Assembly: GCA_032718475.1 (NCBI GenBank)
Contig: JAUCBJ010000489.1
Location: forward strand, 1 to 53,390
Source: Nemertoderma westbladi
Taxonomy: Eukaryota > Animalia > Xenacoelomorpha
Length of the DNA stretch: 53,390 bases
Reading direction: 5' to 3'
Shown: one piece after another, positions 3,492-48,100 of the stretch
Layout: the number at the start of each line of letters is the position of its first letter
How positions within the stretch are numbered: position 1 is the first letter of the stretch
Position numbers and translations under genes: made by a program
The notes under the pieces: generated by a model
The model's database searches: none
Told to the model about the DNA's origin: nothing
Seen by the model: the letters and a program-made list of their open reading frames with translations, nothing else

Positions 3492-4449
3492 TATCATTGT
3501 AAACTGCACGATACCTAAAGATAGATACAAAGATAGATACCGCAAAGATACAATTTTCTGTTTAGTTCCCTTCCTAACTGCATTAAAATTACTGGAATTA
3601 CATTCAATAATTGATTTATATTCTATACAGTATGTTATATTATACCGTATCGTAATTATTCATAATTATAGATTGAACCTTAAGATAGAATGGATTACTG
3701 TATTGTTTCATCCTTCCACTATATGTTAAGGGGGCGTTCATAAAGTATGTTAAGGGGGCGTTCATAAAGTATGTCACCAAAATTTTCTAGATTGCATGAA
3801 TACACAGCGACAAACCGGGGACGATCTACAATCAGGGGACGTCCCCGGAATGAAAAGATATCAAAAATGGAATCTACGTACTAAAATTAATGGCTTCTGA
3901 AAATTTCAGATCATTTCGGCGATGTCCTCTGTTCCACCCAAACTTGTCAAATGCGTTTGTAAATTTGTGTTTGAGTTTTGAAAATTTCACTGACCCCAGT
4001 ATAATGCGATAGTTTTAAGTGTCCCTTTTCCATACAGTTAATATAACATTCCAAATACTCATTGTAGTATGATGTACCCCCCCCCCCCCCCCCCCCTCCC
4101 TCTACCACAAAGTGTGTCACGCAAGCTCGATCTGCGCCCCTCTGTCACATTAGTAAATTTGTAATACCCCCAAACCCCCCCCCCTACCCCCAGATAAAAA
4201 TATTTTATGTCAATAATACACAATATTTATCTTGTTTTATATTTAGCTTGTCTGTTTATCTCTGTGGGTTATTGCGATGGTTTGACTAAATAAACCTCTG
4301 AGAAATTTTGACTTGCAAACTGAAAGTGAAGAAAAATAAACCGGTTTATGTAAGTAATACATAATATTTATTTTTTTCTTATAAATTTCCATTGTATTCG
4401 TACAAGCTCCCGGGAACTTTTTTCTCGATTGCGAAATACCATAATTTCC

Positions 4450-5180
4450 AACACGAAATCAAAAAGCTGCATTAGGAATAATTTTATTGTTAAAGCCAGT
4501 TCATGCAAAAGGCAAAGTTTTATGTTAACAAATCCAACAGTACAATAAGCCGCCTGGCTTATGGGGATACGGATACATAATGGGTTGAATAGTTATGAAG
4601 TGTTCATCCTTGGGGGTTAGCGTTGTTTCTTTCAGGAAACATCCAAGAGAGAAAGGTGCTTCCGTTATTTCATGTCTCACTTCCTTTACTTCACATCATG
4701 TAGGGAAATACCAATTACGTCACACAATGTGCAGCTGTATGCAAAGTAATAAAATTCGGCAGTGCGTTTATGAACGGATACCGCAGAAATATACCACTGA
4801 CAACAGTCTGACTACCACCGACAACAGTCTGACTACCACCGACAAAAACTAATAATAATAGCAACACACCGACATATGAAAAACACTAACGATTTTTACC
4901 ATTACGCTATGCAATATAATAATTTAAAACAGATAATATATGAAGGCGGTATTATATTTTAAAGAAATTATCATGACTAATTACACCACCGACAACAGGC
5001 CGACAGTGGACAATATACTTTGTTATAAATATTTGGACTGGAAATAAAAATTGTATAATCATGCATTGAAATAGTTTACTAACATTGCCGAAGTTGTCGG
5101 TATACTGTCGGTTTGCGATCTTACCTGTCGGTTTGTGTCTTTTGTTGTCGGTGGTATGTCAAATGTGTCGGTGGCGTATT
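4450..5180 (-). repeat. Inner right inverted repeat of MULE-like element (more diverged copy)
   Basis: Inverted relative to 920-1635; ends TGTCGGTGGCGTATT, matching AATACGCCACCGACA at 920. Confidence 0.8.
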
Positions 5181-6144
5181 ACTTTGAAGGCAATTTTCTC
5201 GGAATGACATTCTTTCACGCAAATTTTTTATTAATTTCGTAAGATTTTATAATATTTCGAGTTATTTACAAATTAATTAATAACCGCAGGGGGTAGCCCC
5301 CCGTAATTTATGTCTCATATTTACACAATGCAAGACAACGTAACTGACAGACTTACGGGGGTTTGTCATTGTGACATTTTTTGCATTGTATCGAATGTTT
5401 TATTTACATACGCCTTGTATGTACAAAGCAAAAACGCTGTTAGTACAAAAGACAACCCTGAAGTCAAAATATTAATGGAAAGTGAAAAATAATACGCAGA
5501 AAAATTTCCTACCACCAGAAGAAATTAGAAAGTTACGGACATTTTAAACCAACAATCTGAAGACAAAAGGTAATTTGCGTTTTACTCTGAGAAATTACTT
5601 TTTTGACTTACGGTCTTTTTACATTGCACGGCAGAATTGGTGTTATAATATCTTCACAAGGAAATAAGCTCTAAGAATGTCGGTTTGCCATTTTGTTTGT
5701 CGGTTGGTTGACTACCAAAGGCAACTTTTCACATACACCGATATAAACAAAGTAATTCAATTTTTCATAATGGCAAAATGCCACCAGCCCCTCCCCCAGA
5801 GAGACCACTATCACCACACTTAGCTTTTAATTTCTTCCGGAGTAATTTTTATATTTTAGAATTACTTACAGTGTATTATGTAGAATGAATTTAATTTAGG
5901 AAAAATATTTTTGAAGACTATCTGTCAACCAATCTTTCAATCGATCAATATATTATTCCACCAACACATCAATCAATACATCAATATATACTGTATACAG
6001 TAGGTACCTGAACTGTATAAAGAAAAAGAGTAACAAAAAAGTAAAACACATTATCTTATACAATGCTATATTGCGCCTCTGCATTCTCACGGGCTGGGCA
6101 CCGTTTTTTGTTTCGGTTGCGCAAATTCCATACATTAAATGCCA

Positions 6145-6831
6145 ACACGAAAACAAAAAGCTGCATTAGCAATAAATTTTAAAGCCTGTTAAGGCAAAGT
6201 CTTATGTTAACAAATCCAACAGTACAATATGCCGCCTGGCTTATGGGGATACAGAAAAGGTTGAATAGTTATGAAGTGGTCATCCTTGGGAGATTGTGTT
6301 GCGCAACCATTCTTTTCCGGTAACATCCAAGAGAGAAAGGAGCTTCCGTTACTTCTTGTTTCCTTCCTTCACTTTACTTTACGTCATTTAGGTAAATACC
6401 AATTACGTCACACAATGTGCAGCTGTATGTAAAAGTAATAAATTTCGGAATTGTATTGCACTGTACTGTATGTTAGAGTATAGGAACTGATACCGCAGAA
6501 ATATACCACCGACAATAGTCTGACTACCACCGACAAAAACTAATAATACTAGCAACACACCGACATATGAAAAACACTAACGATTTTTACCATTACGCTA
6601 TGCAATATAATAATTCAAAACAGATAATATATGAAGGCAGTATTATATTTTAAAGAAATTATCATGACTAACCACCGACAACAGGCCGACAGTGGACAAT
6701 ATACTTTGTTATAAATATTTGGACTGGAAATAAAAATTGTATAATCATGTACTGAAATAGTTTACTAACATTGCCGAAGCTGTCGGTATACTGTCGGTTT
6801 GCGATCTTACCTGTCGGTTTGTGTCGGTTTG
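6145..6831 (-). repeat. Outer right inverted repeat of MULE-like element, cut off by an LTR at 6832
   Basis: Near-identical reverse complement of ~975-1635; direct repeat of 4450-5140. Confidence 0.85.
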
Positions 6832-7486
6832 TGTTCGCGCTTTTAAGACCTTTGGCAGTTTAACCCGCCAAATCTATATGTCTTCTAGGTTATAAATCGA
6901 CTTTAGCCTATGACAAGTATTTGACACAAATAAATCCAACATTAGCCGAAGCCAGTCTATGCGCGACCATTCACCCGCTGGATATACCCGGGAGACTGGA
7001 TTCGGATGCTTTAATTTGATTGCGGTGCAGGCCTACCGTACTATTCGATTGATCGTTAATATAATTCCTGACAAATATCATTCACTTTCGGGAAATATTA
7101 GCAGTTCCTTTAGGACGTGGCGCTCTATCTATATAAACAGAGCTATGGCTTACACTAAACACAACGGAATGGATTATAAGTTACACATAAGGCGCATTCT
7201 TTAGGAGATGCTTTGTTACGCGGACAAGCACATACAGACTATTGCACACCGCTGCACACTGAATTGCCGATAGTCACTGATTTTAATCATATATAAAGAG
7301 AATAGCAACCGACATTTGTAGGGCCTATAAAATAGCATTCAATTCACTACAAACCACGATAATATAAGTCGCAATTGCTATATGTAGCTGGTCTCTCTAA
7401 CCTTAGTGTATCAAGAAGATCGGGGTTTCTGATCGTTTATAGTTATTCTCCAAATAACAATATGCAAACGAATGATACATTTAATA

Positions 7487-8745
7487 ACACGAAGTGGGGC
7501 CTTCGCGCAGCACGTGACTTAATTATACTTAGTTATACATTTCGCCCTCTAGCGGCAGACTGGAGGACTCCAGACCGTTTACTGCCCACCAAAGACTCAG
7601 GCCGAATTCTACTACGTATCTGCTACGTTTCAGCTTGAACGGATCATAAATAACGAGATGGGAGAAAGATTTCACTTTCAAACATTTCGCCCTCTAGCGG
7701 CAGACTGAAGAACTGCACACGGATTAGCCTTCAATTCAATTCAATTCCTTCTTTCAAAGTCACAGCTAATGGTCTAGTACATATCTGCCAAATTTCAGCA
7801 TAAATGGATTAAAAGCAAAGAAATGGGAGGACATTTAACGTTTAGACATGTGGCCCTCTAGCAGGAGACTATTGCTCTGATGGTGTCTGAAAGTCTCTCA
7901 AACGTCTCAACTTTAGCTCATATTGATACCTACAAATTTTCAACTTGGCAGCTTTAAATCCGACAAAGTTATTAGCATGTCAAAATCGTAACGACGACAA
8001 CGATTTCACTTTCAGACCTTTGGCCCTCTAGCGGCAGACTGGAAAACTGCAGATGGATTCGCCTCCTTTGAAAGTCACAGCTAATGGTCTAATACATATC
8101 TGCCAAGTTTCAGCTTAAACGGATTAAAAGCAAAGAAATGGGAGGGCATTTAATGTTTAGACATGTGGCCCTCTAGCGGGAGACCATTGCACTGATGGTG
8201 TCTGAAAGTCTCTCAAAAATCTCAACTTTTGCTCATATTGATACCTACAAATTTTCAACTTGGCAGCTTTAAATCCGACAAAGTTATTAGCATGTCAAAA
8301 TCGTAACGACGACAACGATTTCACTTTCAGACCTTTGGCCCTCTAGCGGCAGACTGGAGAACTGCAGATGGATTCGCCTCCTTTGAAAGTCACAGCTAAT
8401 GGTCTAATACATATCTGCCAAGTTTCAGCTTAAACGGATTAAAAGCAAAGAAATGGGAGGGCATTTAATGTTTAGACATGTGGCCCTCTAGCGGGAGACC
8501 ATTGCACTGATGGTGTCTGAAAGTCTCTCAAAAATCTCACCTTTTGCTCATATTGATACCTACAAATTTTCAACTTGGCAGCTTTAAATCCGACAAAGTT
8601 ATTAGCATGTCAAAATCGTAACGACGACGACAACGACGACGACGACGACGACAACGACGACGACGACAACTATTTGCATAAATTGACCCACCCACTAACA
8701 GTGTCAATTCGCTAAGGCTCCGCCAACTTCGTGGCTCGCCCCACA
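7487..8745 (-). mobile_element. Non-autonomous Crypton/Helentron(HINE)-type element with internal satellite
   Basis: Both termini (TGTGGGGCGAGCCACGAA ... GCTGCGCGAAGGCCCCA..TCGTGT) are shared with 43281-44136; (GAC)n microsatellite near the 5' end; central tandem array. Confidence 0.65.
7666..8625. repeat. 315-bp tandem repeat, ~3 units
   Basis: CAAAATCGTAACGACGAC at 7981, 8296 and 8611. Confidence 0.9.
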
Positions 8746-12140: not shown

Positions 12141-12772
12141 TTTGCGTTGTACGCTACTGTTAAAGGGACATCACGCTACTATATGTATTATTTAATATAC
12201 GGTATGAGAGCAATATCGCACGAAGCAATGTCAGTGTGAAGAGGCAAGTCGTTTCCAAGGTCTACCCAGAGCTTGGTTTAGCCGAGACACGAGGATCTGA
12301 ACTTTGCATTCCTAATACTCTGCTTACCAATAATACTTGAATATAGTAGGAGCTTTATTGTACTTTAATAAGTACGGATATTTCATCTTACTGTAGTTAC
12401 GTATTTATAATATGATACGGACAGTAAGGAAAGAGAAAAAGAATTATTTCTCGCCGTCGCACTAAATATATAATATATAAGTAATTAAGTAATAAACACT
12501 AATTGTAAAAGCCTTTGCTGAATTGCCCCGTTATTTTTATTATCTTTTACATTAAAATACTCTGTAGTTGATTTAATAAGTGTAAGAGACCGTATTATTG
12601 CTGTATCGGTGTTTTTAGAGGATCTAAGACCTATTTCCTCCGTATGTGTACTGTGAAAGGCATATTTTATGATTCTATGGCAATTCGTGACGCAAAAGGG
12701 TGATAGCTACTCTTGAACAGTAGTTACTATGACTACGGTTAACAGCTGACATTCATACGTGTTGATTTCCTT

Positions 12773-13755
12773 TGTTCTACGGCGTCTCTCAGTTCAGTCA
12801 GCCAATGAGAGCGTTTTTGTGGCTCCTTGTACAGAAAATTTCCGAGAAATGACGCAATGCCTATGTGCAGTGTTTACATTCAGTCTTGAGCCAAAGAAAG
12901 AACGGCTTGGAAGTATTTTGTGCTTTACTGTTTTTTAGTCGTACACTAGTAGGTTTAATTATAAAGGGCATATATCCTTTAACATACCTAACGACTACCT
13001 GACTCATGGAATCACTGCTGACTGATCATACATGCTGACTGCTGAAACATTGCAAACTCATAACAATCAGTGTTTTCATTGTTGTTTTATACTGCTATTT
13101 ACTGTCAGTTCTTCATAATATGGTTGATGAATTATTATATTTGGAATAACGATAAACAACCCCGAAACCCAATATTCTTGATATACCGAAGGTAAGAGAG
13201 AAGGGTTACAGATAAACGATTGTGACTTATGTTAAAGTGGTTTGAAGTGAATCTAATGTTATTTGATAGACCCTACATGAGTCAGTCTGTGTTCCTTTTA
13301 TATGTGACTAAAATCAGTGAAGATTGGCAGATTAGTGTGCAGTATTGTGCAGCATTGTGTATGAGTGAGTCTGTTAAAGAAGCAATTCCTAAAGAATGCG
13401 CCATATATGTGAATTATAATTAAGCCATATCGTTGTGAGTAGTTTAAGTCATAACTCTGTTTATATAGATAAAGCGCCACGTCCTAAAGGAACTGTTAAT
13501 ATTACCGAAGGTGAATAATATTGTCAGAGATTATATAATACTGTCAGTCGAATAATACATTAGGCTTACATAGCAATAAAATTAAACCGTCGAACCCAAT
13601 CTCCCGGGAATCTCCAACGGGTGAATGGTCGCGCACGGATTGGTTTCGACTAGTGTAGTGAATCAAATACTTGTCATAGACTAAAAACTGATTTAATATC
13701 TAGAAGACATCTTAATTTGGTGGGTTAAACTGCCAAAGGTCTGAAAGCGCGAACA
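12773..13755 (+). mobile_element. 5' LTR of a BEL/Pao retrotransposon
   Basis: Begins TGTTC and ends GAACA; contains CCAAT, an Inr-like TCAGT and AATAAA (~13575). The 3' boundary is confirmed by homology with the copy at 6832. Lies upstream of BEL gag. The 5' boundary is less certain. Confidence 0.7.
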
Positions 13756-14037
13756 TTAAAGGATATAGCTTCTTTATTGCAGTAAGCAATAAAGTCGAAA
13801 GTACCGGTCGACCGGTAACCAGTAGGCCTGACTGCCTGATCATCCGGACCGGTACCTACTTCCGTATAAGTACACTAGTATTATTCGATTTGATTGTTGT
13901 ATACCGGTAGGCTGTTTAAGAGATTAGGGACTGTACACCCCTTGTTTCTTTTGGAGCTTACTTATTTCTGTCAGTTTTATTTGTTTGTAGGCCAGTATTG
14001 AACAGAAGGCGTGTAAACCTGATCAGATTGGACAGAC

Positions 14038-14600
14038 AATTTGTAGGCTGAGCTGTTGTCTGATTGCTGTTAGGTCCGAACGAATTGCAGTGTGTGTAGA
14101 GCACTTGTCCGATTAAGTACGATTAGGCAGTAGGGGCAGCGAACGCTGTAAGGTAATCCCCCAACTAAAGAATAAGTCGCACTACTGGGTTAGAGCGCAT
14201 ACTCCCTAATCATTTCGGAGTCTGCATGTCCTGTGGTTTATTTAGGCTTGAGAGTAGTCTGCCATCGTTTAGTCTGTACTTTGTTTGTGTAAGTCTGTAC
14301 GGGTAGCGTATAATTTTATTTAAATAATTTGTAGGCTGGATAGTTGTCTGGCTGTTATTAAGTCTGAACGGATTGCCGCGTGTGTAGATCATCTGTCCGA
14401 TTAAGTACGATTAGGCAGTAGGGGCAGCGAATGCGGTAAGGTAAACCCCCAACTAAAGAATAAGTCGCACTACTGGGTTAGAGCGCATACTCCCTAATCA
14501 TTTCGGAGTCTGCATATACCGTAGTTTGTTTAGGCTTGATAGTAGTCTGTCAGTGTTCGGTCTGTATTTTGTTTGAGTAGTTTGTACGCGTAGCGTAATA
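14038..14600. repeat. ~289-bp tandem duplication in the retrotransposon leader
   Basis: TGTCCGATTAAGTACGATTAGGCAGTAGGGGCAGCGAA...ATCATTTCGGAGTCTGCAT at ~14106 and ~14395. Confidence 0.85.
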
Positions 14601-15922
14601 TTTATTATTCAGAGTTTATGCGATTATCCGCAACATTCATTCCCCAAGTTTGTTCCTACAGTAATTGTGTTTGTTATACATACCGCTATAGTTAAATTAA
14701 CCCCGGTACTACACGGGCTGCTCGGCGTAGGTAAAGACTGGTGATTTTGTGCATCGGTCACTCCAGCAGATGCCGTGGTTCTTTTAGCTGTTCAAGTATA
14801 TTTAACTACTGATTATCTGTTGTACAAGTACTCGTACCTAATTTAGGGTTTAGTGTACAGTACTTTCCGAAGTAATTATTGTAGGCATTATATTTGTGTT
14901 GTAAAGTGGTTGATAGGCACATTCGATTAGCTCTATTAACTTCTAGGTAGGAACACTCCGTGATACATAACGTAGAACCTATAGCGATACGGCTATAGGT
15001 CGTCAGGCGGTGGTATTTTCCTATCTAGACAACGCAGTGTATTTACTACTACTTATTATTTCAAATACCGTAGTACTCTGTCCGTTGTAATAACCGGTTA
15101 TCTAACCCTTTGTTAGGCTGGTTTGTAGACTTCTTGTAAAATTACCCTAAAAATTCGTATTTGGTTTTTGTAAATTTTTGTGTTTATTTAGAGATTGTAA
15201 TCTCACCCGAATTGTACGTAATTTGTAGTATTAAGTAACTTAGGTAAATTAGAATTATTTGTTTTAGTGTCCTGTACGTAACACTTCACTGAAAGCGCAC
15301 CGCTTTGTGTAGTGATTACTCCCCAGAAATAATAACATTTATTTCAAACATTGACAAAACCCACTAAAACGGGTATATATATTATAAATCAAATCTAACG
15401 ATTTATAAATCGTAGGCCTACCATACAACCATTAGGTCTCAATATCAGTTGGATTACTGCTCAAATAACGGTAATAAAGTAAGTAAGTAACCAAGTAACC
15501 CTAAAATACAGAAATTCAATTATTTATAATAATTGATATACCGGTATTTACGATAGGCCTATTATCTTTATTTCTATAAATATTAGGCTGAAATTATACC
15601 GGTACTTGTAATTAATTCTAGTCCAGAATTATATATACTATAAATTGTAAGCTGTATACCGGTATTCCGATAGGCCTATTATATATTTATATATATTTGT
15701 GCTAAAATTATACCGGTATTCTGTGATAAACCTAGTCTGTAATAATACTTATATAGTTATATATACTATAAGTATACCGGTATTCTAATATATTATATAT
15801 ATATCACGCTACACTGAGTAGCAGTAACGGTAATTAATTACTAGGCTAGCAGTTCATACTGAGTTACTAGACTTGCTTAGACTGTAATATAGCAGTAGGC
15901 ATTCAACTGTACATACCTAGTC

Positions 15923-18900
15923 ATGTCTGATACTAAGCAGAACCTGTCAGACAGTTTATTAGATGTAACTATCTGCGACTCAGATAGAGACGTACAACTG
16001 TCTGGTCGTAAATCCAGTTCACCTCCCACTGTGAGGAAGGTCATCCCTCCAGTAGTAATAACAGAACCTAGGCTGGTCCAACATCGTAGGTCTATCATAG
16101 GCACCCGAGCTCAGGTCAAGCGGGACCAACAAGCGGCGGAACAGCAACAACCCGCTAGTCAAGAACTCATTCCTCAGCGGCCCAGCAGCTCCAGTAGTGA
16201 GGATACTGTAGAGCTGACACCCGAGAGCGGAGCAGAGATGACGGATGCGGTTTATACGGATCCCCTTCTCATCCTTCCTGCAGCCGTGCTCGCGGGGTTA
16301 TTGATCGCGGTGGAAGAACACCAGATCGATTGGGCGAGAAGTCAATGGTCAACTAGAGATAGCTACGCGGGCTACACTAGTGAAGAACTGAAGTCTATTG
16401 TCGAGTCGCAATGGAACTTCCCCGGACCCGGACTCCCGTTTGATTTATCAGAAGCTGCCTGGGAAGACATACACCGGATGGGAGTAGCCAAGGAAACCAT
16501 CGATCCAGCTGTGTGGAAGAGGTCCGCAGCCGGATACGCACAGGGATTCTTCAGCTCTATGGAGCGAATAGAAAAGCAACTTTTTCAACAACCTCAAGGA
16601 CCTCAAGAGCAGGGATCGCTGCTTTATCAAGTTAGAGAAAGAGTTCTGCGGATTAGGCTAATCTTATCCGCCTTTGAGGAGGCTTCTAAAAGAAGGCAAG
16701 ACACGTCGTTGCAAGTTGCCGTAAAGACTTGGTTTCAACGGGTGAGTCGCCAGGTTCAAGGAGCAGCTCAGTGGAAGGCTCAGTTGGAGGAGCGCTCAAC
16801 CCATGGAGAATCAACAGACGCTACTTTTTCCCAAGTGGAAAGTGAAGCGACGGCAGAGAAACCGCATAAGAAGGATGCCATTGATATCTATCTGTCAGAC
16901 TATCAGCGTTTTGTGGGAGATGAAGAGTTGAGGAGAAGGCTAGAGGGACTTAGCCCTAATAGCGAAGGAGCCAAACTTGTGTTAGATGCGATTGATGTGG
17001 ATAGGTTAGCGGCGAACCAAGCTAAATTCGATGAACAACTCCGCATCGCTAGAGAAAGGGAAGAACAAGTAAGGAAAAAGCGTATAGAAGACAGAAAGAT
17101 AGCAGCAGTGGCAGAGGCAGAAAGAAAAGCGGCAGCGGCAGAGGCAAAAGCGGCAGCGGCAGAGGCAAAAGCGGCAGCAGTGGCGGAAGCAGAACGAAAA
17201 GCGGCAGCGGCAGAGGCAAAAGCGGCAGCAGCAGAGGCAAAAGCGGCAGCAGTGGCGGAAGTAGAACGAAAAGCGGCTGAAGAGATCATCCAACTGGAGT
17301 TGGAAAATCTTCAAGAGAAGCAAGACGACTTCAGTAAACAGTTAGCAGCTAGTAATATGCAGATGATGAGTCGATCTACTCCCAAAAGACAAGGGTATAC
17401 CTCATCTGAGGAAGGCGATACCACCGACACTGAAGGCGGAAGAAATCGATCTCGCCTAAGCAGACGTAAAAGAACATTCCACCGGCAGAAATTGCCTGAT
17501 TTGCCTCCAGCTGTTAGAAGGCAACTAAATAACACCAACTTAGGTAGTACAGAGCCCACAGACCAAATAATTACCATAGAAAGACTCCCTACTATAGTAG
17601 ATGAGCCTGAAATAATTAGGCCTGTTCTTGAAATCACCCCTTCGGTGATAGACACACCTGTGCTCCCTGAAGCTACTTCTAAATTCCCTCTGCATAGCAC
17701 TAAGCTACCTGTGCCCAGTAGAACTGCCCAGGCGACAGTTCAGGTCCTGGACCCCGAGCGAAATATTCATAATTTATCGCCCGTTGTCCCTCGTCCGCCC
17801 GCTACAACGTTGGCGACTCCCGCTTCGGCGGTCGAATGGGTGGACAGGGGACGGCGGGGGATGGATATCCTGCTCGGGCAGATGCAGGAGACTGTCCAGC
17901 AATTCAAGGGCACAGTAAGGGAAAGTAGGCTAGAGTTGCAAGAAGTGCAGCAAAGTATCGCGCTAGAACGCGATAAATTAGTAAATACCCAAAAGGGTAT
18001 ACCACCACCCTCTGTAACAATGTGTCAACCTGTTAGGTCTGAAGTATTGCATGCGCAAGGTGTGGAGCCTACACGCATTTATACTGCTAGCGAAGTAGAA
18101 ACTCCTATAGTGAACCCTATTAAGGGTAATTATAGACCTGTTTGTAAGGATATTCCCTATGGAACTGATCATAATCCGAGGAATTTATATACCGATAACT
18201 CGATATTAAATAGCACAATGGCCCAAGAAAGTTTTACGCGTCAAATGGCTAGAACCGAAGCCCGGCAAGCGGTAAAGGTTGGAGAGATCGTCAAGTTCAA
18301 TGGAGATGAGATGAAATGGTTACCTTTTAATGAATATTACAAAGATAACATACAGAACTCTGTACTATCTAATGGAGAAAAACTTAGATACCTCATCGAG
18401 TGCTTGGAAGGATCTCCCAAGTTAATGGCGTTAAGGTTTATTGGACATCCAGACGGATTAAGACAAGTTTGGGATACACTAAACATCAGGTATGGTAATA
18501 GGAATAACATAGCTGGGTATTTGTATGCAAAGTTGGTAGCGCCCCGAAAGTTTATTAGCAGCGGGATTATAGAGTTTTCCGATGAAATTCAGGAGATCTG
18601 CAGACAATTAGATTGGCTAGGTAAGTCTCATGAGTATCAGAGTGCTATGGTTATTAGAGCAGTGGCTTCTACTTTACCGAAGGGTGGAGTAGGTACACGC
18701 TGGGATAAGAAAGTGTTATATATGATGGAACAACAACAACGAGACCCTACCATGGCTGATCTCATGTCATTCTTAGATGGAGAAGTGAAATTACAGCTCC
18801 TAAGACAGTCCAGAGAGAAGACACTGGAAAACAAGGTAAGTGAGAAACCCGTTTCTAGGAGAAGGGTAACACCAGTATGTTATACCGACGACGGTGAAAG

Positions 18901-19684
18901 CCAAACTTCTCAAGGAGAGGACAGCGGGAAAGACACTGACAGATCTTATGTCAATAAAATGCCTAAAGATCAGGTAAGTAAATCCAAGTCTCGACCCAAT
19001 GACAGAAGGGAACCGGTACAAAAAACCCCTCCTACGTCTCCTAAAAGAATTCAGGTGAGAAAGCCCGAGGAAAGAACAAGTGTGCACCACACAGCACATG
19101 TTAAAGTAAGTAACATCAAGCCCAAATGTGTGCTGTGCGACGGGCCCCACCGTTTAAATGCGTGTGATAAATTCCTGAGGAAATCACTAAAGGATAGACG
19201 TGAAGTCATGTGGGATAAGAGGTTGTGTTATAATTGCCTCAGACGAGGACACCAACGGCGAACCTGTAACTCCGACGCAAGGTGTGCAAAGTGCGGCGCA
19301 AAACATCATATCTTGTTGCACACGGAATTCGAACGAAACAGCCCGAGTCAGGTAAGTGAGTCCGAACTACATGTCCAATTCAGTGATGTGAATGACACTG
19401 ATCAATCTGAGATGGAAGGATTCTATACGGACGAGTTCTCCGACCAAAACGAATCCTGTTACCTAATAAACACCACCGCAGTGTATCGAACACTCGTGTA
19501 TGAGAAAGACACAGACAGCGACCTTACCTTAACTACTTCCGATCAACAACCATCTTGGAAAGCGCCAACTTCCAATATAGGAATCCGAGAATTTCCTGTA
19601 GTCCAGTTACGGGTCCACGGACCTCAGAAGAGCTATATAGTGAACGCCCTCCTGGACTCCGGTAGCACAGGACTGCTCATTTAA
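15923..19684 (+). CDS. gag: BEL/Pao Gag-Pro polyprotein, truncated within the aspartic protease
   Basis: 1253-aa ORF. DUF1759-like capsid region (KFNGDEMKWLPF...EKLRYLIECLEG), triple zinc knuckle (CVLCDGPHRLNAC, CYNCLRRGHQRRTC, CAKCGAKHHILLH) and protease motif ALLDSGS, followed by an abrupt switch to AT-rich DNA. Confidence 0.92.
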   Translation: MSDTKQNLSDSLLDVTICDSDRDVQLSGRKSSSPPTVRKVIPPVVITEPRLVQHRRSIIGTRAQVKRDQQAAEQQQPASQELIPQRPSSSSSEDTVELTPESGAEMTDAVYTDPLLILPAAVLAGLLIAVEEHQIDWARSQWSTRDSYAGYTSEELKSIVESQWNFPGPGLPFDLSEAAWEDIHRMGVAKETIDPAVWKRSAAGYAQGFFSSMERIEKQLFQQPQGPQEQGSLLYQVRERVLRIRLILSAFEEASKRRQDTSLQVAVKTWFQRVSRQVQGAAQWKAQLEERSTHGESTDATFSQVESEATAEKPHKKDAIDIYLSDYQRFVGDEELRRRLEGLSPNSEGAKLVLDAIDVDRLAANQAKFDEQLRIAREREEQVRKKRIEDRKIAAVAEAERKAAAAEAKAAAAEAKAAAVAEAERKAAAAEAKAAAAEAKAAAVAEVERKAAEEIIQLELENLQEKQDDFSKQLAASNMQMMSRSTPKRQGYTSSEEGDTTDTEGGRNRSRLSRRKRTFHRQKLPDLPPAVRRQLNNTNLGSTEPTDQIITIERLPTIVDEPEIIRPVLEITPSVIDTPVLPEATSKFPLHSTKLPVPSRTAQATVQVLDPERNIHNLSPVVPRPPATTLATPASAVEWVDRGRRGMDILLGQMQETVQQFKGTVRESRLELQEVQQSIALERDKLVNTQKGIPPPSVTMCQPVRSEVLHAQGVEPTRIYTASEVETPIVNPIKGNYRPVCKDIPYGTDHNPRNLYTDNSILNSTMAQESFTRQMARTEARQAVKVGEIVKFNGDEMKWLPFNEYYKDNIQNSVLSNGEKLRYLIECLEGSPKLMALRFIGHPDGLRQVWDTLNIRYGNRNNIAGYLYAKLVAPRKFISSGIIEFSDEIQEICRQLDWLGKSHEYQSAMVIRAVASTLPKGGVGTRWDKKVLYMMEQQQRDPTMADLMSFLDGEVKLQLLRQSREKTLENKVSEKPVSRRRVTPVCYTDDGESQTSQGEDSGKDTDRSYVNKMPKDQVSKSKSRPNDRREPVQKTPPTSPKRIQVRKPEERTSVHHTAHVKVSNIKPKCVLCDGPHRLNACDKFLRKSLKDRREVMWDKRLCYNCLRRGHQRRTCNSDARCAKCGAKHHILLHTEFERNSPSQVSESELHVQFSDVNDTDQSEMEGFYTDEFSDQNESCYLINTTAVYRTLVYEKDTDSDLTLTTSDQQPSWKAPTSNIGIREFPVVQLRVHGPQKSYIVNALLDSGSTGLLI
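17100..17280 (+). repeat. Coding minisatellite (AEAKAAA / AVAEAERK) in gag
   Basis: GCGGCAGCGGCAGAGGCAAAA 21-bp units, in frame. Confidence 0.85.
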
Positions 19685-19892: not shown

Positions 19893-20870
19893 TGTGTGCA
19901 GGCATGGGGAGAGTTCTATAAATTTTAATTTGCTGCAATTTGGTCAACGGATGTAATTGAAGTTTCCTCGTTAAGCAAGATACTAAATTTTATGGTAGCT
20001 AGTGTTTTATGTAGGTTTAGCTAGTAATTTCAACACTTGTACCGATATCATACTTCCTTCTATAAATATTTTATAGTAGCTAGTTCTTATTTCTATTTGT
20101 ATAGAAAACGTTCCAGAATATGTTAGCTATTCATTTTTAAAACAAATTATGTTCTAGAACAAATATTTTTTGTTCTAGAGCATTTTTTAGAAAAATCTGG
20201 ATTCGATTTAAAACGCATGGAATCGTTCTAAAACGTGTTTAAATTCAATAAAAAAAAAATTTTCAAAATTTTTTTTCAATTAAATTTCTTCACAATATTT
20301 TTTTTCATAATTTTTTTTATTCAATCTTAAACGTTTTAAATATAATCCAGATTTTTTTCTAAAAAATGTTCTAGAACAAAAAATATTTATTCTAGAACAT
20401 AATTTTTTTTAAAAATGAATAACTAACATATTCTGGAACATTTTCTATACAAATAGAAATAAGAACTAGCTACTACAAAATATTTATAGAAGGAAGTAGG
20501 ATATCGGAACCAGTGTTGAAATTACTAGCTAAACCTACCTAAAACACTAGCTACCATAAAATTTTGTATCTTGCTTAAGGCCATGATACACCACAGGAGC
20601 GGCGAGCGGCGAGCGGCAGCGGCGAGCGGCCGCGGCAAGCGGTCACTTTTTAAAAATAGAACACATTATTTTCTATGGGTGATGATACACCACAAATGGC
20701 TGCTGCCGCTCGCCGCTCCTATAGTGTATCATACTTAAAGTCGCCGCCCGCCGCTGCCGCCCGCCGCTGCCGCTCGCCGCTCCTGTGGTGTATCATGGCC
20801 TTTAAATTAAGACCGTTGACCAAATTGCAACAAATGAAAATTTTTAGAACTCTCCGCATGCCTGCACACA
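19893..20870. mobile_element. Palindromic (foldback) non-autonomous DNA transposon
   Basis: TGTGTGCAGGCATG.GGAGAGTTCTA termini are inverted; arms ~19970-20240 vs ~20325-20578. Confidence 0.8.
20578..20801. mobile_element. PIF/Harbinger (Tourist-like) MITE nested in the foldback
   Basis: TIR AGGCCATGATACACCACAGGAGCGGCGAGCGGC; TTA target-site duplication at 20575-20577 and 20802-20804. Confidence 0.85.
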
Positions 20871-32040: not shown

Positions 32041-32112
32041 GCCTGGATAGTATAGTGGTTAGTACTTTGCGTTGTGGCCGCAAAAACCCCGGCTCGAATC
32101 CGGGTCCAGGCA
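32041..32112 (+). tRNA. tRNA-His: tRNA-His(GTG)
   Basis: 72 nt. Acceptor GCCTGGA/TCCAGGC, anticodon arm TTGCG-TTGTGGC-CGCAA, T arm CCCGG/CCGGG, T6 terminator just downstream. T-loop reads CTCGAAT. Confidence 0.88.
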
Positions 32113-32729: not shown

Positions 32730-33316
32730 TCCGGGAGTGGAGAGTTGGTAGGGCGGGTTGAGGGTCGCCAAGTCCCTCAACAACACCACTTTCCTCAGGA
32801 GTGTGGGAGAGGTTAATTGGTTCAGCAAAAGAGACAAATAATAGCGGTTACACGGAACATATGTCATAAAGAAGACACACTAGCAACAATGAATAGTGGG
32901 CCTATATGCGCCGATAGTGATGACCCGGAGTCATATGAGGTACTTATGAGGTAGCTACGCCGAGCCACCAGCTACTGCGTAGGCCTGTACAGGTACTGAC
33001 ACGGTAGTTATTTGATGACAGAGATTCCTAGTCCAAACGGACGTGGAAAGTAGCTCAGAAAGTTTCAAGATTATTCTGTAAGAGGTAGAGTAGTATAACT
33101 ACTCTACATAAAATACAGAAATTGCGTACCGGGAAACGAGACCTCAGAGTATACGACGTGGTGTTGGTAACGAACTATACTAAAGAAGTTCAATTGGATA
33201 CTCGCAAGAGTAGTGTAACGAAACTAAGAAGAGACGGACACATCAGGACAGTAGAACTGAGAACTGTGAAGAGAGACAAGAAAACCATTCTGAGACCAAT
33301 AAACAAAATCAATTAA
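32730..33316 (+). pseudogene. Degraded BEL/Pao integrase C-terminus (DUF5641-like)
   Basis: RDLRVYDVVLV...DGHIRTVELRT...LRPINKI is typical of the BEL pol end; the upstream part is broken. Confidence 0.7.
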
Positions 33317-36129: not shown

Positions 36130-38261
36130 CTAGTTTTCCATGAATGTGTTGGCAAAATGATGTTCTCCATAGTTTATTGTAAGTTCCTCACACGCCGCAA
36201 TATCACATGCAGCAGCAATAAGCACGATATTACCAAATGGCATCGCAATACAGTTCTCAGCCTTAGGGTCATGGTTTAGTAAGCTTGCACATGGATAAAT
36301 ATCAGTTAGTTTTTTCAGAGGATCGCCATTTTCTCCAAAGGCATTTATATTCAATACCCGAAGTATATAATCGCTATTGACAGCATTCTTGTCTACATTT
36401 GAACATAAAATCTCCGGATTCTGTGGTAAATAGGGCAACATGTCAGATGTGTTTAGTTTACAGCTGAGCATACAACTGATATCTTCAATCAATGGAAGCT
36501 CCTCTTTGTGAACACGCATGTCTTCTCTGGATTCAAGTAGTAATAACTTCTTTACTGCCAGCCCATCGTATTTACAAAGACCAAGAAGTTTTCCGATGGA
36601 TTCCATTTTTGAATTACAAAACATTGTGCGGGTGTCATGATTACACAAAGTAACTGAGCTTGTCTTCTCTTTGTTAAAGTCAAATTCGCCATGCACGAGA
36701 GAATGTTCGTGCAAAACAATGTCATATTCTTTCAATGGTATAACGGAAACGATTCCTCTACCTTTGTTGGCTATGTAAACTTGCTTTATAGATTTTGATG
36801 CAAAATCATTAGACCAGTCCTTTTTAACATCTTTTAAGAATTTCATTAATAGTAAAGAAGTTTCGCCTTTTTTCGCCAAATGATTCATTATCCCAACATC
36901 AACAGGGTGATGTTTAAATAACATCTGATAAAATGTTACCATATTATAAGGTTTATGAATATTTTCATAAGCATTGCTAAGTAGTTTCAGTTGAATTTCA
37001 CCAGACACATTAGATGCTGTTACCTTAGACAACCCTATTTCCCCAACAATAGCAAAAACTTTAGATATTATGTAGAATGATTTCTCACGTACAACTTTAT
37101 CTTTCAGTTCAATTCGCAAACAGGCGCTCGCAGCCGCAATAGCAGTGTGGAATATCTGAAGTTTCATACAAACCAGAGCTATGTTGTTCAAAATAACAGA
37201 AATACCTTTCGAGTTATTAACTAACACAGATGTGTACTGAATTTTTGCCTCAATATAATCGCCTTGTTTATAAGCATCATTACCTTGTTTTTTAGAACCT
37301 CTGCAACCAGCGGTATCAGGAAATCTTGATACAAATATCGACAACATCTCCCAAAGACCTCTTATAGCCATATCATCGGTTTCTTTAAATCCCAAACTAC
37401 TCATAGCTCCCTTGTAACGAGCTAAAGCCTTGTCATTTCCTGGTTCAAACACTAACACAGCTGCAGCATCCAGAAGAGCATCTTTGTATTCGCCAAGTTT
37501 AATTTCTGTCCGAGCCCGATTATTAAGGACATCCTTGGTAGTGGAGCACATCTCGCTTTTTATACCTTCCATATAAACATCAAGTGCTGCGATGTAATCT
37601 TTAGACATAAAATGTCCCTTCCCCTTAGCTCTTATCTCATCAAGAGTTGATCCCTCATGCATGTCTATTATAACAAGATCAGATGGTGAATCCACACGAA
37701 TGCCGCGAGCTCCATCAGTAAATATTTTATAATAGGGCTCCGTAATTCTCACATTTGTTCCGGCAGGATATTTTATATCTGCCATTTCCATTAAATCCCC
37801 TTTTAAAGATGTCAAAAAATTATACAAAGCAAGTTGGGTTACATCTCCCATGGTATCTTCCATCAAAGTTGTGATGCCAACAGAAACAGTGGGCTCAACT
37901 ATGAATGTTCCCTCAATAAAATATCCTTGAGCAATTTCAAACAGTTTAAGGTCTTTAATAAATATTTTACTTAAATGAGAAAAATCGTGGGTGGCAAATT
38001 TTGTGGATGATCCCGAAATGATATGTGATTCTTTGTGTCCACCACTAGTACTGTGAAGCAATGCCTCCCGATAACCAGAGGATCTCACCATCCCAGCCCT
38101 TAATCTCATCATTGCAGCTGTTTCAATATATTGTTTTCTGTGTCGAACTGCACCCCATTCAGAAATCTGCTCAATAATAGTACAAACCAATGCCTTGGAA
38201 CAATCAATACCACAGTAAGACTTTATTAACTCACTTAATATCCGTTGGTTTTCATCAACAC
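36130..38261 (-). CDS. TPR + SET domain protein (putative lysine methyltransferase), large exon
   Basis: 686-aa ORF, extendable to a cccacag acceptor at 38262. N-terminal EDTMGDVTQLALYN...EPYYK...IRVDSPSD domain, two TPR blocks, SET motifs KGRGIVS, ASLLNHD and EELTINYG. Confidence 0.85.
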
Positions 38262-38583
38262 CTGTGGGTTTAGCAGCAAAAGAGTGGAGACATTATTAGC
38301 TCATAAAATAAATACTCTGCACATGACCTACCATATCTTTCTATCTATAATATGTACACTGCACTGCAGCCACCTTAAGAATGCTATATCGGATTATTGA
38401 CATAATTGCGCCATCTCAAATCCCTATGGGAATCGAATCCCTATGAGTTCGGCTAGCACGGATAATAAGTCTTACCATAGCCAACAAGGGGATGATTACG
38501 TGAAGAAGCAAAGAGAAAAACCAGTGTACATGTACAGAGCTCCTGTATTTCTTATGGAACAGAATATGGTCTACTTATGGGAC

Positions 38584-40620
38584 TTATGAACTACTACTAC
38601 TACTACTACTATTACTACTACTAGGATCGGCATGCTGCATTGCAGCTGCGTTTTTAGAATGCTGTGCCGGCTTGTTGACAAAATTGCACCACCACAACTC
38701 CCTATCACCCATGACATTTGCTAGATTATCCGCATTTATAAGGCCAGTGTCCTTTAAGATGCGTTTTAAGAAAGTCATGGGCTGTCCACCATGCTTATTC
38801 ACTCCATGAGGCTGCCAAAGTACAAGATTATGCACTGGCTGGTCCTCACGGCGAAAGCAATGTCCTGCAAAGCGGGGGCGATTTTGTTCTAGTGTCAAGC
38901 ATGGAGGAACCAATGAGACTCCTCCAATGTTATATAGTCTCTGGTTGGAGATGTGTACATTGTACTTGACACAATGAACCCAGCGTAGCCTTCTTGTGAA
39001 TGTGCCATCCACAGATTTGGTGTCCTCCGCAGTTAGAGCCCAGCATGGACTCCCATAGAGGAGAACTGGAACTACTGCTGCTCTAAATAATCGGACCTTA
39101 AGTTTCCGATTAATTATCGGTGACTTCCAAATCCTGGAAAGCCTATTCAAGGCTGCCCATGCCTTTCCCTTACGTATTCGAAGGTCCTCACCTGACTTCC
39201 GGATCCATGATCCCAGGTAACAGAAGTCGTCCACATGCTCAAGCATACCATCCTTTGAGCTTATGCTCATCCGATCAGAGACTTGCTGAGAACTTTCAAA
39301 GTTAACTGTCAGAATTTTGGTCTTTCTGGAGTTAATAAAAAGACCAACACTAGAAGCAGCATGTTCTAATGAGCTGAGGAGCCGTTGGGCTCCCTCTAAT
39401 GATTCTGAGAGTACTCCTAAGTCATCAGCAAAGTCTAGATCAGTTAGGTACTTGGCAGGATTTCCTCGACTTCTGGAGCCAGTAGGTGGAGTTATCATCA
39501 CCCCATCATCATTATAATGATCTAAGGACATGCGTAGAACATAGTCAACCACAATAATGAACAAGAATGGTGCAAGTGTGTCTCCTTGGAGGACGCCCCA
39601 TAACACTTCAAATGGTTCTGTGTCACCATCAACAGTAGACACAAATGTTGTCGAACCATCGTATACTGATCTGATTGCTGCAATAATTTCATCTGGAATC
39701 CCATATAATGAAAGTATGCTGAACATACGTGAGCGAGAGACTGAATCAAAGGCCTTGAAGAAGTCAACAAAGATAACAGCCAGATGCCAGAAGCCAGACA
39801 GCCAGATGTCTTTCTTTATTGATAACTCTTCAATTATCCTTCTAAGTGCCAAAATGGGCTCCATGGTCCCGCGACCTTTACGGAACCCATTCTGATTTCC
39901 ACGGAGCAGTCTTTCAATGGGATCCTGATGCGATTTAGTAGAATTCTATTGTATAGCTTTGCAGCAATTGAGATCAATGAGATTCCCTGAAAAGAACCAT
40001 AGAGTGTTAGGTTGCCCTTCTTGGGAACTGGCACCAACTTATTTGTTTTCATTTCTTGTGGGACTCTTGTTGTTCGGTACATGTCTACTACGATGGGATA
40101 GATGAGCTTTAAACACTCAGGTATTTTAAAGACCTCAGGGGGAACACCATCTACTCCACTGGCACGTTTGGTCTTAATGCTCTTTGCAGCAGCCTTCACT
40201 TCTGCAAAGGAGATATCGCCAATGGGAATATCTGGGAGTACAGACTCAGACACTTTTACTTCTATAAAGTTATCAGGCAATACCCTGTCATTATTGAGGA
40301 GTTTTTCAAAGGAGCCTTCCAACCATTGAGGCGATCGGCTGGTGATAGAGCCTTAACCTTGGTGGTTGGTTGGCTTAACTGCATTCTTGGCCGCTGTAGT
40401 CTGTTTGAGTCGGGACTCTTTATGTGCCTTATAGAGGACATTTCGGCACTTCTGAATTTTGTTGTCAATCCAAGGGGCCCTTTTCCTGTTTCGAGGGTAT
40501 ACAGGAACTGAATTTATGAACACTGGATACAGTATGAGCCCAAAGCTTTCCTGATCGATCGCCTTGTTGCAAAGGAAGTTACCTGAACCTACTCTAGAGA
40601 CTTGCCTCAGGTTCACCAAT
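38584..40620 (-). mobile_element. RTE-type LINE, 5'-truncated and frameshifted, with an (AGT)n tail
   Basis: ASGVDGVP, VPVPKKG, FVDFFKAFDSV, GVLQGDTLAPFLF, DFADD and YLGS motifs; frameshift near 39900; (ACT)n at 38590-38623. Confidence 0.9.
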
Positions 40621-44136: not shown

Positions 44137-45124
44137 CAAAAGTACATAGTAAAAAGTAGAATGAGGTAGGTAGAATGATCAAGAATGAGTTTTATTGTTT
44201 CATATGAGTTTCATTTAAACTAAAAAACTAAGCTAAAAACCTACCAACTCGCGTAAAACTCAACCACTCGGACATAATAGTTGAATTTCGCTAAATTGAA
44301 AATGAGTGAAAAACAGCGGTGTTTTCCGCTTACTTTTTTTTATTGAATAATAGTCCTGTATTGAACAAAAAATAACCTAGAACGACCTCGAGTGAGGAAG
44401 ACAGACCGACCTCCTGTACAATACTTCAATGTAGAAGAAGTACATTATATAGGCCTATCAATGAATCAATAAACATTATACCCAGGAATAAAAATACTCT
44501 GCCTCTATAATTATTAATATAGTATATAACGAGAGAAAGCCGCCCCAATATTAGATTATTACAACAACATATCCATTGGGTAAGAAAGTGGAGGAGAGCC
44601 AGCCCGACTCCCAATTTTTTCGTTTATATTACGTGATAAATTTTCACTCATCTCGTCATGAACACAACATGTATGTAACCTTTTGTTAAATTTGTTGGCT
44701 ATGCGTTTGCGGCTGTTTGGGCGGGGTGTGGTAGGCCTACACTTTTCACACTGAAACATTTTGGTTGTGAAATGTTCAGGGCACAGCGATCAGAGATATT
44801 TTATATATATTTTATTATGAGAGGAAGAAGAACATACAACGTTATTTACTATATTATATGTAACGAAATAATTGTTTTCGGGTTTGGAAGCCTCCCCAAA
44901 TAGTTGATATACGATTATATTTAAAATTATTTCGATGGTCATGGTCATTCACCCGTCTTTAGTTAGAAATTTGTTTCCATGAAAGACAGTTTAGTTTAGT
45001 TTTTAATGATTTATTATCTCTTATCTGACTGGGGTAATAATAAAGGATAGGATAAATGGATGCAAAGTGTGACAGTAACAATTATTTCCCTGACAACCTA
45101 GCATGTCTTAAGTATATGATATAT

Positions 45125-48100
45125 CAAAGGGGGAAGTTTGGATTCACTGCATAAATGCAGTTCACCAAACTTCCCCCGAATGCACACTGTAACTTCCCCC
45201 TTCCCACAAATATCCACTGTTGAATTAATTTGAAGCGATATAATAAGTACAAAATTGTGCGAGTTTTTAATTGTGTGGTCCAATTGTTATTTGATCTCTA
45301 TTTATTATTTAAAGTGCATTTAATATCACACTGGTTTTTAGAATATTATACTATACAACCTTATGTTTTATTAATTTACCCAATCGAAGCCTCATAAGGG
45401 CCGGTTATTTTTGTACGCATATCCCCTAATGCGCTCAGTAAGGTTCAAACAACATATTAATATGAAAATAAAGTATCTGCAAAGAAAATAACCCAATACT
45501 ATATAATTTGACCTTATTAAAAAATTTGCACTTTTGCACACTTATTTGTACAAGTGCACTTTAGCAGATCGTAATGGTGGCTCTTATTTAACAAACTTAT
45601 GTTTATCCTCTACCGATCTACGATGGTGTATGATCAAGTGTCAGTCGCTAAAAGTGTCAAAAATCCAATTTAATAAATCTCGATATTTGCGATTTTTGAC
45701 CATATTCATGGACATTTTAAGTCACTTTATAGACATAAAAAGTTAAACAAATGTTACGATTATAGTTAGAAATCATTCCAAACTACATTTTAATCCAAAA
45801 AATAACATTCTACGATGAATAGAACTGGAAATAATAGTGTTTGAACTATCGAAAAAATGTTCACTATTTAAGTGCATTTTGCACTAAGTGTACATAAGTC
45901 TTTTCCTAAGTTTTATCCTATTTCACACACTACAATCTATCCTCTATCCAATGAAAAAAGTTTCAGATTAAACGGCCCTGTAGACCCGAAGTTATTTGTG
46001 TTTAAAAATAGTCACTCGAAAATTTCAAATTCTCTTGGTCACATAGTCTAGTGGTTATCAATCACGTTAATGAAACCTAAATTCGCGGGTTCGAAATCCA
46101 ATATTGACCTGACCATTCTTAATTTTTTTGCAAAAAAAATTATTTTTATTTTTTCACTAAAATCGCTCTAACTTCGGTTCTGGTGGTCCAAATTCAATAA
46201 AATTGGTATATTCTTTGCTGTAATTTTTTTCTTAATCTTTTGAGAAGGGGTTATTTTTGGCCCCAAAAAAATTAACAAAAAAGGGCCAAAATAACGCGAT
46301 ATTTTTCGACCCTTAAAATTCGTAATTTTAATTATATATGTTAAGATAAAAGATAGCGGAGTTAATTTGATACTTTTTACAGGTACTTTTGGCGCAATAC
46401 GCTAAATTATAATGGAATAGCGATTTGTTAAAAAAAAAAATTTTTCGTCCCTTTTTATAAAAATTATATTTCACACGATCGCCTGCCGCTCCAGTTTTAT
46501 AATACCTCCGGCGCTGTGATTAACGCTGTTAGATTGATAATTTAACGCACTATAAGTCTGTGTAAACAAATCTCCCGTAAGTTAAGTAGTTTTCGAGCTA
46601 GACGATTTCCCGCGAAGCAAGTTTGAAGCGCGAAATTATAATTTTGGCCCTCATTTTTTTAATATCATCCTTGGAGCAAAACCGATAACATATTTGAATT
46701 CCCCGTATGGATATTGACTGTATAGAATGTACCTTAACCAACTAAAGTTAAAAATAAAAAATTATTCGATAAAAACTACTTTACAAATTCTGGCCCTTTT
46801 TGGCCCCTATTGCCGACATATTTTTTGTACCCCCATTCGATAGGAACGTAGCCCCAATGGTCTTCTACGAGTTTCATAAAAGAATTAGTGGATTCCTACC
46901 CGCGTTGTCGAATTAAACATTTCGGAAATAAGTTTTCCAAAAAAGACGGACAAAAACGTACAAATTTACAGCCCCTTTTTCCACCCGAAATTTTAATAAA
47001 TCTCTTACCCCCATTCGATACGAAGGTAGTACCACTCTTCCCCTTTCCAACCGCGTTACTTTCGTCCCCGTACGATTAATATTAGCCGAGTTATAGCGGA
47101 TCCCGCAAAGTCATTTTGTCCGTTTTTTCAACTTTGACGGACATTTTCGGAAAAAAGGCGTGGTAATCTTTTTTGAAAAAAAAAACGAATTCACTAATTA
47201 ATCCCTTCTATCGTATCCCGGCGTCGGCTAAGCAATAACCTAGGGTTTTTTCGAGCCACTGTAGAGCGCCTTTCAAAAAAATTTTAAAATTGTCGAAAAA
47301 ATGACGGTTTTTTGTCCGTCGTGTCCGTCGAAGGGTTAGATTTAATAATGTTAGAGTTGCTAATATCTTAGAATTCCGAGCCGCTCCCCTGGTGAGAAAA
47401 TAAAAAAATTTGGTCAGTTCCTTCATCGAAAAGTCCCCCAGAATCCCAAGTTAACCTATATAGTTAGCGATGGCCTGCGGCTTTAGGAGCGGCCGCGGTA
47501 TTCACCTCCCTCATAGCGGCCGCGGCGGTGTTGCGTCAAATGGAGAAATATTTATCCCACCAAGGTGGGCCCCTCAATGAAAATATACTTAGAGAAAGAC
47601 CACGAGGTAAAGGGAAAAGTGATGGAGGGAAGAGGAAATATATGGGGTATGGGTCGAAAGACACGATGAGGGAAGAAAAGCTGATCTCGTTAATTTTATA
47701 TTACTTGTTATTTTAAGTAATATATTTTTGCTCCGACTGAATGCTTGCTCTATAGTCTATATACTGGTTACCCATGAATATTAATATATACTACATTATC
47801 GTTTGTACATAATACGAAGTCTGTAAGTTATAGTTACTGAAACATTTCAGCTCTGAAATTATAATATATGAATCGAGGCTGTATTTGTTACGATCTACAT
47901 AGAATATATAGGTTATTGAAACCGTTATATTGTGACGATGGATTATAGGTTTCTTTCACTGGTAAATCCCTATAAATGTTGAAGTAATAAAATTTAATTC
48001 CAGAACCAAAGTTTGAAGGTCTGCATTTTATACCACTCATAGCTTAGAAATTGTACAATGTATTGTCAATCTGAGTGAAGTCGTATAGGTTCAACGAACC

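Follow-up and report, generated by a model that had tools for sequence, protein, structure and literature searches.

A truncated BEL/Pao retrotransposon of Nemertoderma westbladi and the probable priming of its family from its own RNA

The element and its limits

The window, the whole 53,390-nucleotide stretch of Nemertoderma westbladi DNA analysed here, contains part of a BEL/Pao retrotransposon, running from a 5' LTR to a gag frame, and a second, diverged piece of the same LTR on the opposite strand:

12504..13755, plus strand: 5' LTR, TGT...ACA, 1252 bp, delimited by loose contig ends, a drop in depth and the end of the second copy
6832..7456, minus strand: second LTR copy, 5'-incomplete, of a diverged subfamily (77-78% identity), with other repeats on both flanks
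13575..13586, plus strand: AATAAA / ATTAAA, likely poly(A) signal (motif scan); ATTAAA is retained in the second copy
15899..19684, plus strand: BEL/Pao gag frame of 1261 codons with DUF1759, zinc knuckles and the start of a protease motif, ending right after LLDSGS

We aligned contigs from four public runs of the host, from four studies, to positions 12200-14400; one run, X5, is by our guess RNA. The retrotransposon family is highly repeated in these runs. Two unlike loose ends precede the TGT at 12504 (runs X4 and X5), that of the X5 contig being purine-rich and PPT-like. At the other end two X4 contigs diverge at 13756, and summed depth is about halved past 13753 in X1 and X3. Based on the loose ends before 12504 and at 13756 and the drop in depth after 13753, we place the LTR at 12504-13755; its 3' end reads GAACA at 13751-13755. 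The original prediction had taken this end to be fixed by the second copy, which does stop at the same place within 3 nt, but the final ACA there may be that of the neighbouring repeat. Because this ACA is shared with the adjoining repeat, and because the second copy (7456-6832, minus strand) aligns solely to 13132-13755 of the LTR, we regard it as a weak witness of the LTR end and as none for the primer-binding site (PBS). The LTR also carries splice-donor-like sites at 13186-13197, 13505-13516 and 13615-13626, all 3' of the 12-nt sequence described below; two of them have the identical exon end CCGAAG.

The TG..CA ends and purine-rich PPT-like flank are those of a BEL/Pao LTR, and the coding part agrees. 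The gag frame matches PF03564 (E 1.6e-11) and has two stretches that match a zinc-knuckle regular expression; its best relatives are Pao polyproteins, as for a BEL/Pao Gag, and all 15 homologues carry PF03564 (DUF1759), 13 of them also PF05380 (Pao peptidase). Assignment to the Ty3/gypsy chromoviruses, the group of Tf1/sushi, was rejected, Gag being of BEL/Pao type. A profile-free search returned no relative above 46% identity, most lying near 30%; no longer fused relative was found, and a search of viral contigs with Gag and a broad BEL/Pao alignment returned nothing. The protein has an N-terminal extension of about 780 aa before DUF1759, with a coiled-coil-like AAEAKAAA repeat at 16930-17330 (residues ~345-475). 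LTR and gag are separated by a leader of 2.1 kb, which includes a 288-nt tandem duplication as well as short TATACCGGTA repeats (14038-14603, 15537-15804).

Ten BEL/Pao queries matched no reverse transcriptase (RT) in the window, from which pol and the 3' LTR are absent. Since RT and 3' LTR are lacking, we consider the element a truncated copy. Nested inverted-repeat elements at 19893-20870, right behind gag (600-nt arms, 19971-20578), may have caused the truncation. Elsewhere the window contains the decayed 3' end of another BEL/Pao integrase (32948-33310; tblastn E 5e-6), with no LTR of this family behind it; an open frame of 720 codons that matches TPR and, weakly, SET and adjoins a non-LTR-type RT frame (RVT_1, weak DUF6451; 36130-38292 and 38584-40352, minus strand); three copies of a ~700-nt repeat (936-1637, 4418-5174, 6106-6834); a 315-nt tandem array at 7537-8631; and three tandem units of ~2.8 kb at 45104-53107.

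A primer-binding position complementary to the LTR

The two sequences at issue are:

13756..13767, plus strand: primer-binding position TTAAAGGATATA, without TGG, read from the sequence
12971..12982, plus strand: candidate self-primer TATATCCTTTAA, beginning at LTR position 468

It had been claimed that no TGG follows the LTR and that the 12 nt behind it are a perfect inverted copy of 12971-12982; both statements were confirmed in the sequence. With no TGG after the LTR, the 18-nt PBS for tRNA-Arg or tRNA-Gly that the ICTV lists for the family is absent. The 12-nt match is anchored flush, at offset 0, with the LTR end, and six offsets inside that end yield only 4-7 nt. When the LTR was shuffled by dinucleotides, 6 of 20,000 trials produced an anchored match this long; with the PBS shuffled instead, and with splicing and offsets of 0-3 permitted, 12 nt was reached in 2 of 200. 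Counted without gaps, the inverted repeat spans 22 nt at 82% (12961-12982 with 13756-13777), and the duplex energy goes from -11.6 kcal/mol for the 12-mer to -20.4 for this longer pairing; no other site in the LTR pairs as well with the PBS (-15.4 for the 12-mer site, -11.4 for the next best). Thus, the PBS is complementary to its own LTR over at least 10 nt, as in Tf1/sushi elements. A spliced primer in this LTR, sought under strict and loose rules, gave at best 10 nt with 8 Watson-Crick pairs, and we rejected a splice-junction primer here, the complement being contiguous. A family-specific 32-nt pattern had no match in metagenome contigs; a 17-nt pattern occurred at 10 loci in viral contigs, which lack similarity to the LTR and were dismissed as chance.

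Variation among copies was scanned over 12885-13034 at a 1% threshold, with depth taken as a sum over contigs, not as copy number. Two adjoining stretches stand out:

12943..12983, plus strand: block common to subfamilies that differ on both sides; depth peak, substitution-free at 1% in all four runs, loose ends at 12983/12984 (X3, X4, X5)
12984..13079, plus strand: stretch in which copies diverge strongly, from the second base past the 12-mer; depth lower by ~10-fold or more, with joints from 12983/12984 to 13079/13080 (X3, X5)

The 41-nt block contains a TATAAA and the 12-mer and ends one base past the latter. Six substitutions were recorded at 12925-12942 and two at 12984-12985, with none in 12943-12983; the substitution-free stretch thus spans the whole block and is not special to the 12-mer, and 12885-12924 is likewise free of them. 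Depth is highest at 12955-12969 and drops by about tenfold or more at 12985. At 12983 or 12984, contigs of X3, X4 and X5 depart from the window sequence into at least four different continuations (20 of 38 loose ends), and others join it at 12898, 12932 or 12943. The depth peak, the lack of substitutions and the contigs that leave and enter at its edges indicate that several subfamilies share the block; the second copy lacks it, since it is found only once in the window. Within the block, variants are confined to the TATAAA, which has lost one base in 1.3-10.7% of summed depth at 12963 and, in X1, in 1.4% at 12962. One X1 contig represents a subfamily with the 12-mer changed at two positions, a point against the self-priming reading. 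The 40 of 241 variant rows listed give no view of PBS variation between copies.

Matches between PBS and LTR in other BEL/Pao loci

Using five Pao polyproteins, with a Pfam check of four, we drew BEL/Pao loci from metagenome contigs and retained the best 80 of 439. A repeat flanks the coding part on both sides in 27 of the 80, and in 12 the LTR 3' end is fixed by diverging flanks. All 12 end-fixed loci have a PBS that, from offset 2-3, matches 10-15 nt of the same element's LTR. The match is contiguous in one (L079) and crosses a GT..AG intron in the others, with GTAAG donors in 10 and pyrimidine-rich acceptors in all; in these 11 (L013, L019, L023, L031, L041, L049, L058, L059, L072, L073 and L090) the complement forms only across the LTR intron. 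The junction-primer loci may be Sinbad-like. In L019, L031 and L041 a second acceptor just upstream suggests a 13-nt micro-exon. Only L072 has a TGG, at offset 1 (junction match of 10 nt), so a tRNA primer is possible for that locus.

The end-fixed loci comprise nine distinct PBS cores, L058 and L059 belonging to one family and L019, L031 and L041 sharing a core. Shuffled PBS strings reached a locus's own score in 0 of 200 trials at 11 loci and in 1 of 200 at L090. When LTRs and PBSs were swapped between loci, the window element included, 11 of 154 pairs reached 10 nt; nine of these lie among L013, L019, L031, L041 and L058/L059, which have related cores, and the other two pair the window LTR with the L058 and L059 PBSs, by chance. 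The match at 12 of 12 loci, in different letters per family, together with the shuffle and swap controls, is strong evidence at the level of sequence that the self-match is under selection in BEL/Pao.

In a scan of 52 further loci whose LTR ends are not fixed, run without a chance control, 12 gave at least 11 nt, 11 of them at GTAAG junctions; the remaining 40 gave no match, probably because most of them lack an LTR. Additional junction-type loci are L011, L012, L020, L022, L025, L027, L030, L036, L050, L052, L062 and L065, and in L062 and L065 the complement is flush with the LTR (offset 0), like that of the window element. Four loci were rechecked: L036 fits at offset 4, and L038, L063 and L044 have no clear site. 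Seven of 10 spliced relatives have a pyrimidine-AG in the 40 nt preceding the primer. Of 11 relatives, 3 have a TATA-like motif 120-135 nt upstream of the primer and 2 have one 29-41 nt upstream; in none is the distance 11 nt. This evidence carries over to the window element only by analogy, because its Gag shares no more than 27% identity with those of the distant loci and joins no supported group (two Gag trees, one from an unfinished search), and because its complement is contiguous.

Probable priming from the element's own RNA and its alternatives

Further motifs and pairings bear on how the LTR might be transcribed and primed:

12960..12965, plus strand: TATAAA, either a TATA box or part of the extended pairing and of a local hairpin, 12962-12981
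12802..12885, plus strand: CCAAT (12802) and initiator-like TCAGTC (12880), candidate upstream start (motif scan)
12931..12938, plus strand: pyrimidine run with AG, acceptor-like, just 5' of the shared block, read from the sequence; TTTAG is kept in variant loose ends (X1, X4)
13772..13794, plus strand: perfect 9-bp hairpin just 3' of the PBS, pair probability ~0.7 in 6 of 7 folds
13375..13383, plus strand: 9-nt complement of 13768-13776, the bases following the PBS; reached by 6 of 2000 shuffles when anchored and 61 of 2000 by energy; altered in the second copy
13626..13634, plus strand: pairs with the U5 end, 13747-13755, when either window copy is folded locally to minimum energy; 119 of 2000 shuffles, not significant alone

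We conclude that the feature in the window is the 5' LTR and PBS of a truncated BEL/Pao element whose family probably primes reverse transcription from its own RNA rather than from a host tRNA. Self-priming is the best reading given the missing TGG, an LTR complement that is not readily produced by chance, a shared block that ends one base past the 12-mer, and the same self-match in distant families. On these grounds that part of the original prediction stands. Its further suggestion, that the primer is the transcript 5' end as in Tf1, fared less well: a TATA box is expected ~30 nt before a start, and none lies there upstream of 12971, the sole TATA-like motif upstream of the 12-mer being the TATAAA 11 nt away. 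An internal primer is at least as likely as a capped-end primer, since the complement spans a splice junction in most relatives and three of their five TATA-like motifs lie 120-135 nt upstream.

Transcription would then start upstream of 12971, so that the 12-mer would lie towards the RNA's 5' end, probably within R rather than at the cap. The CCAAT at 12802, the initiator-like TCAGTC at 12880 and the acceptor-like 12931-12938 offer a candidate upstream start. The 5' copy of the 12-mer, possibly with up to 22 nt, would anneal to the PBS. In global folds the PBS/12-mer helix has a probability of 0.00-0.13 in six of seven transcript models and ~0.49 in one, and the 12-mer can sit in a local hairpin when upstream sequence is included; removal of a guessed intron, 13192-13469, before folding brought the helix no advantage. 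Since this pairing is not the dominant one in free folding, we propose that a Gag chaperone probably helps. A cut at or near 12982/12983 would free a 3' OH, the RNase H of RT being the presumed cutter by analogy with Tf1, and RT would copy U5 and R back to the cut, where strand transfer would occur. Strand transfer at this point would explain why copies diverge from 12984 on, although a U3/R junction there fits equally. The window copy itself could not prime alone, since it lacks pol. Its primer may be, by analogy, an intron-less form of the splice-junction primer of other BEL/Pao families. It is also possible, though here we lean slightly towards doubt, that a large part of BEL/Pao is tRNA-free, primed by an internal piece of its own RNA that is mostly assembled by splicing, with the window family intron-less and its primer masked in a hairpin until needed. 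Priming of this kind, if true, would call for an internal cut far from the cap and would link reverse transcription to the splicing state.

The first alternative takes the TATAAA at 12960 as a TATA box. Transcription would then start near 12990, past the 12-mer, which would form the end of U3, so that the RNA would carry it in its 3' LTR copy only; end-to-end pairing would circularise the genome, and the primer would come from another RNA or from a cut 3' copy, whether on the same molecule or on one packaged with it. The TATAAAGGGC context of the motif, seen too at the TATA-like motif of L031, is consistent with this, as are an A preceded by T at 12990, the lack of a TATA 30 nt upstream of 12971 and the divergence from 12984, which suits a U3/R junction equally well. 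However, the supposed TATA box suffers one-base deletions at 1-11% of summed depth, against none at 1% in the 12-mer, and the start would fall where the LTR varies most. Moreover, the complement in relatives is made by splicing and is hence transcribed sequence, and TATAAAG belongs to the extended 22-nt pairing. We therefore consider this reading unlikely.

Priming at the PBS by a host RNA, a tRNA half or another small RNA, with the LTR 12-mer a captured copy or decoy, appears distinctly less probable. The ICTV assigns host tRNA priming to the family (PMC8742986), and half-tRNA priming is described for Copia lineages in the accessible part of PMC6317226. Yet the PBSs of distant families differ and each is matched by its own LTR, which a small set of host RNAs would not yield. 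The one tRNA of the window, a tRNA-His (GTG) called by ARAGORN at 32041-32112, matches the PBS over 4 nt only, and 12400-16000 has no Rfam match. Least probable of all is an origin of the inverted 12-mer by chance or as a relic of events at the DNA level, such as an insertion with TTAA duplication into a palindrome (removal of 12983-13759 leaves one): the 12-mer is AT-rich, events of p ~3e-4 to 1e-2 do occur when many windows are screened, and the diverged second copy covers the 3' part only, but the match directly abuts an LTR end that is fixed by other evidence, one X5 contig runs continuously from the PPT-like flank through 12983 to 13079, the second copy has no TTAA flank, and the same signature occurs at 12 of 12 other loci.

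To our knowledge, self-priming has been demonstrated only for Tf1 and is predicted for Tf1/sushi, Tcn1 and TAR. A search of the openly accessible literature, judged mostly by listings, found no report of self-priming in BEL/Pao. Papers of 2001 on BEL-like elements of Fugu and C. elegans are said to describe PBS types and an element-encoded primer in Cer7, which could narrow the novelty. BEL/Pao priming is absent from the accessible parts of PMC3601003 and PMC8220671, and terms for PBS, tRNA and priming are absent from the main texts of PMC554778, PMC3118150 and PMC6238403.

The feature is real, and it probably reflects a known mechanism, self-priming, in a family described as tRNA-primed. Should BEL/Pao elements self-prime, the mechanism would be present in each of the three LTR superfamilies, and the family description would need revision. 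Such elements would presumably escape control via tRNA supply or tRNA fragments, and PBS finders based on tRNAs would miss them.

The precedent is Tf1, which, according to the accessible text of PMC7175516, self-primes with a primer RNA cut by the RNase H of RT; bioRxiv 10.1101/2022.12.06.519325 and PMC4600332 place the Tf1-type primer at the transcript 5' end and describe pretzel stems. The window element resembles Tf1/Tf2 of S. pombe, Tj1, Tosmo and other Tf1/sushi members in having no tRNA PBS and 11-12 nt after the CA of the LTR that complement the LTR itself. As in the 'pretzel' of that group (bioRxiv 10.1101/2022.12.06.519325), stems can be drawn on both sides of the PBS. Unlike these Ty3/gypsy chromoviruses, it has a BEL/Pao Gag and a gap of 773 nt between primer and PBS. 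The two flanking duplexes are drawable but weak (one is reached by 6 and 61 of 2000 shuffles, the other by 119 of 2000, and their partners lie 240 nt apart) and are absent as a rule from the 10 relatives tested, where 0 of 20 tests reached 5% (lowest 16 of 300).

Self-priming in Tf1/sushi, and its prediction for Tcn1 and TAR, are treated in the accessible part of PMC6317226, with the rule that a complement of at least 10 nt starts 0-5 nt after the LTR. The window element conforms to this rule like the TAR lineage of Ty1/copia (Houba, Osr-1) and plant Tcn1, which differ from it in being plant Copia and Gypsy elements. It shares with Belpaoviridae / Semotivirus (ICTV) a DUF1759 Gag, zinc knuckles, a protease that follows, a TG..CA LTR of ~1.2 kb and a PPT-like flank. 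It departs from the ICTV description, in which replication is poorly understood and the PBS is an 18-nt match to tRNA-Arg or tRNA-Gly, in lacking such a PBS (PMC8742986). With the splice-junction loci it has in common the general absence of a tRNA PBS, a PBS that starts with T and an own-LTR complement of 10-15 nt, whereas those loci build the complement across an intron, mostly at offset 2-3, in LTRs of 177-694 nt. Like the window element, L079 has a contiguous complement, and L062 and L065 have a flush one.
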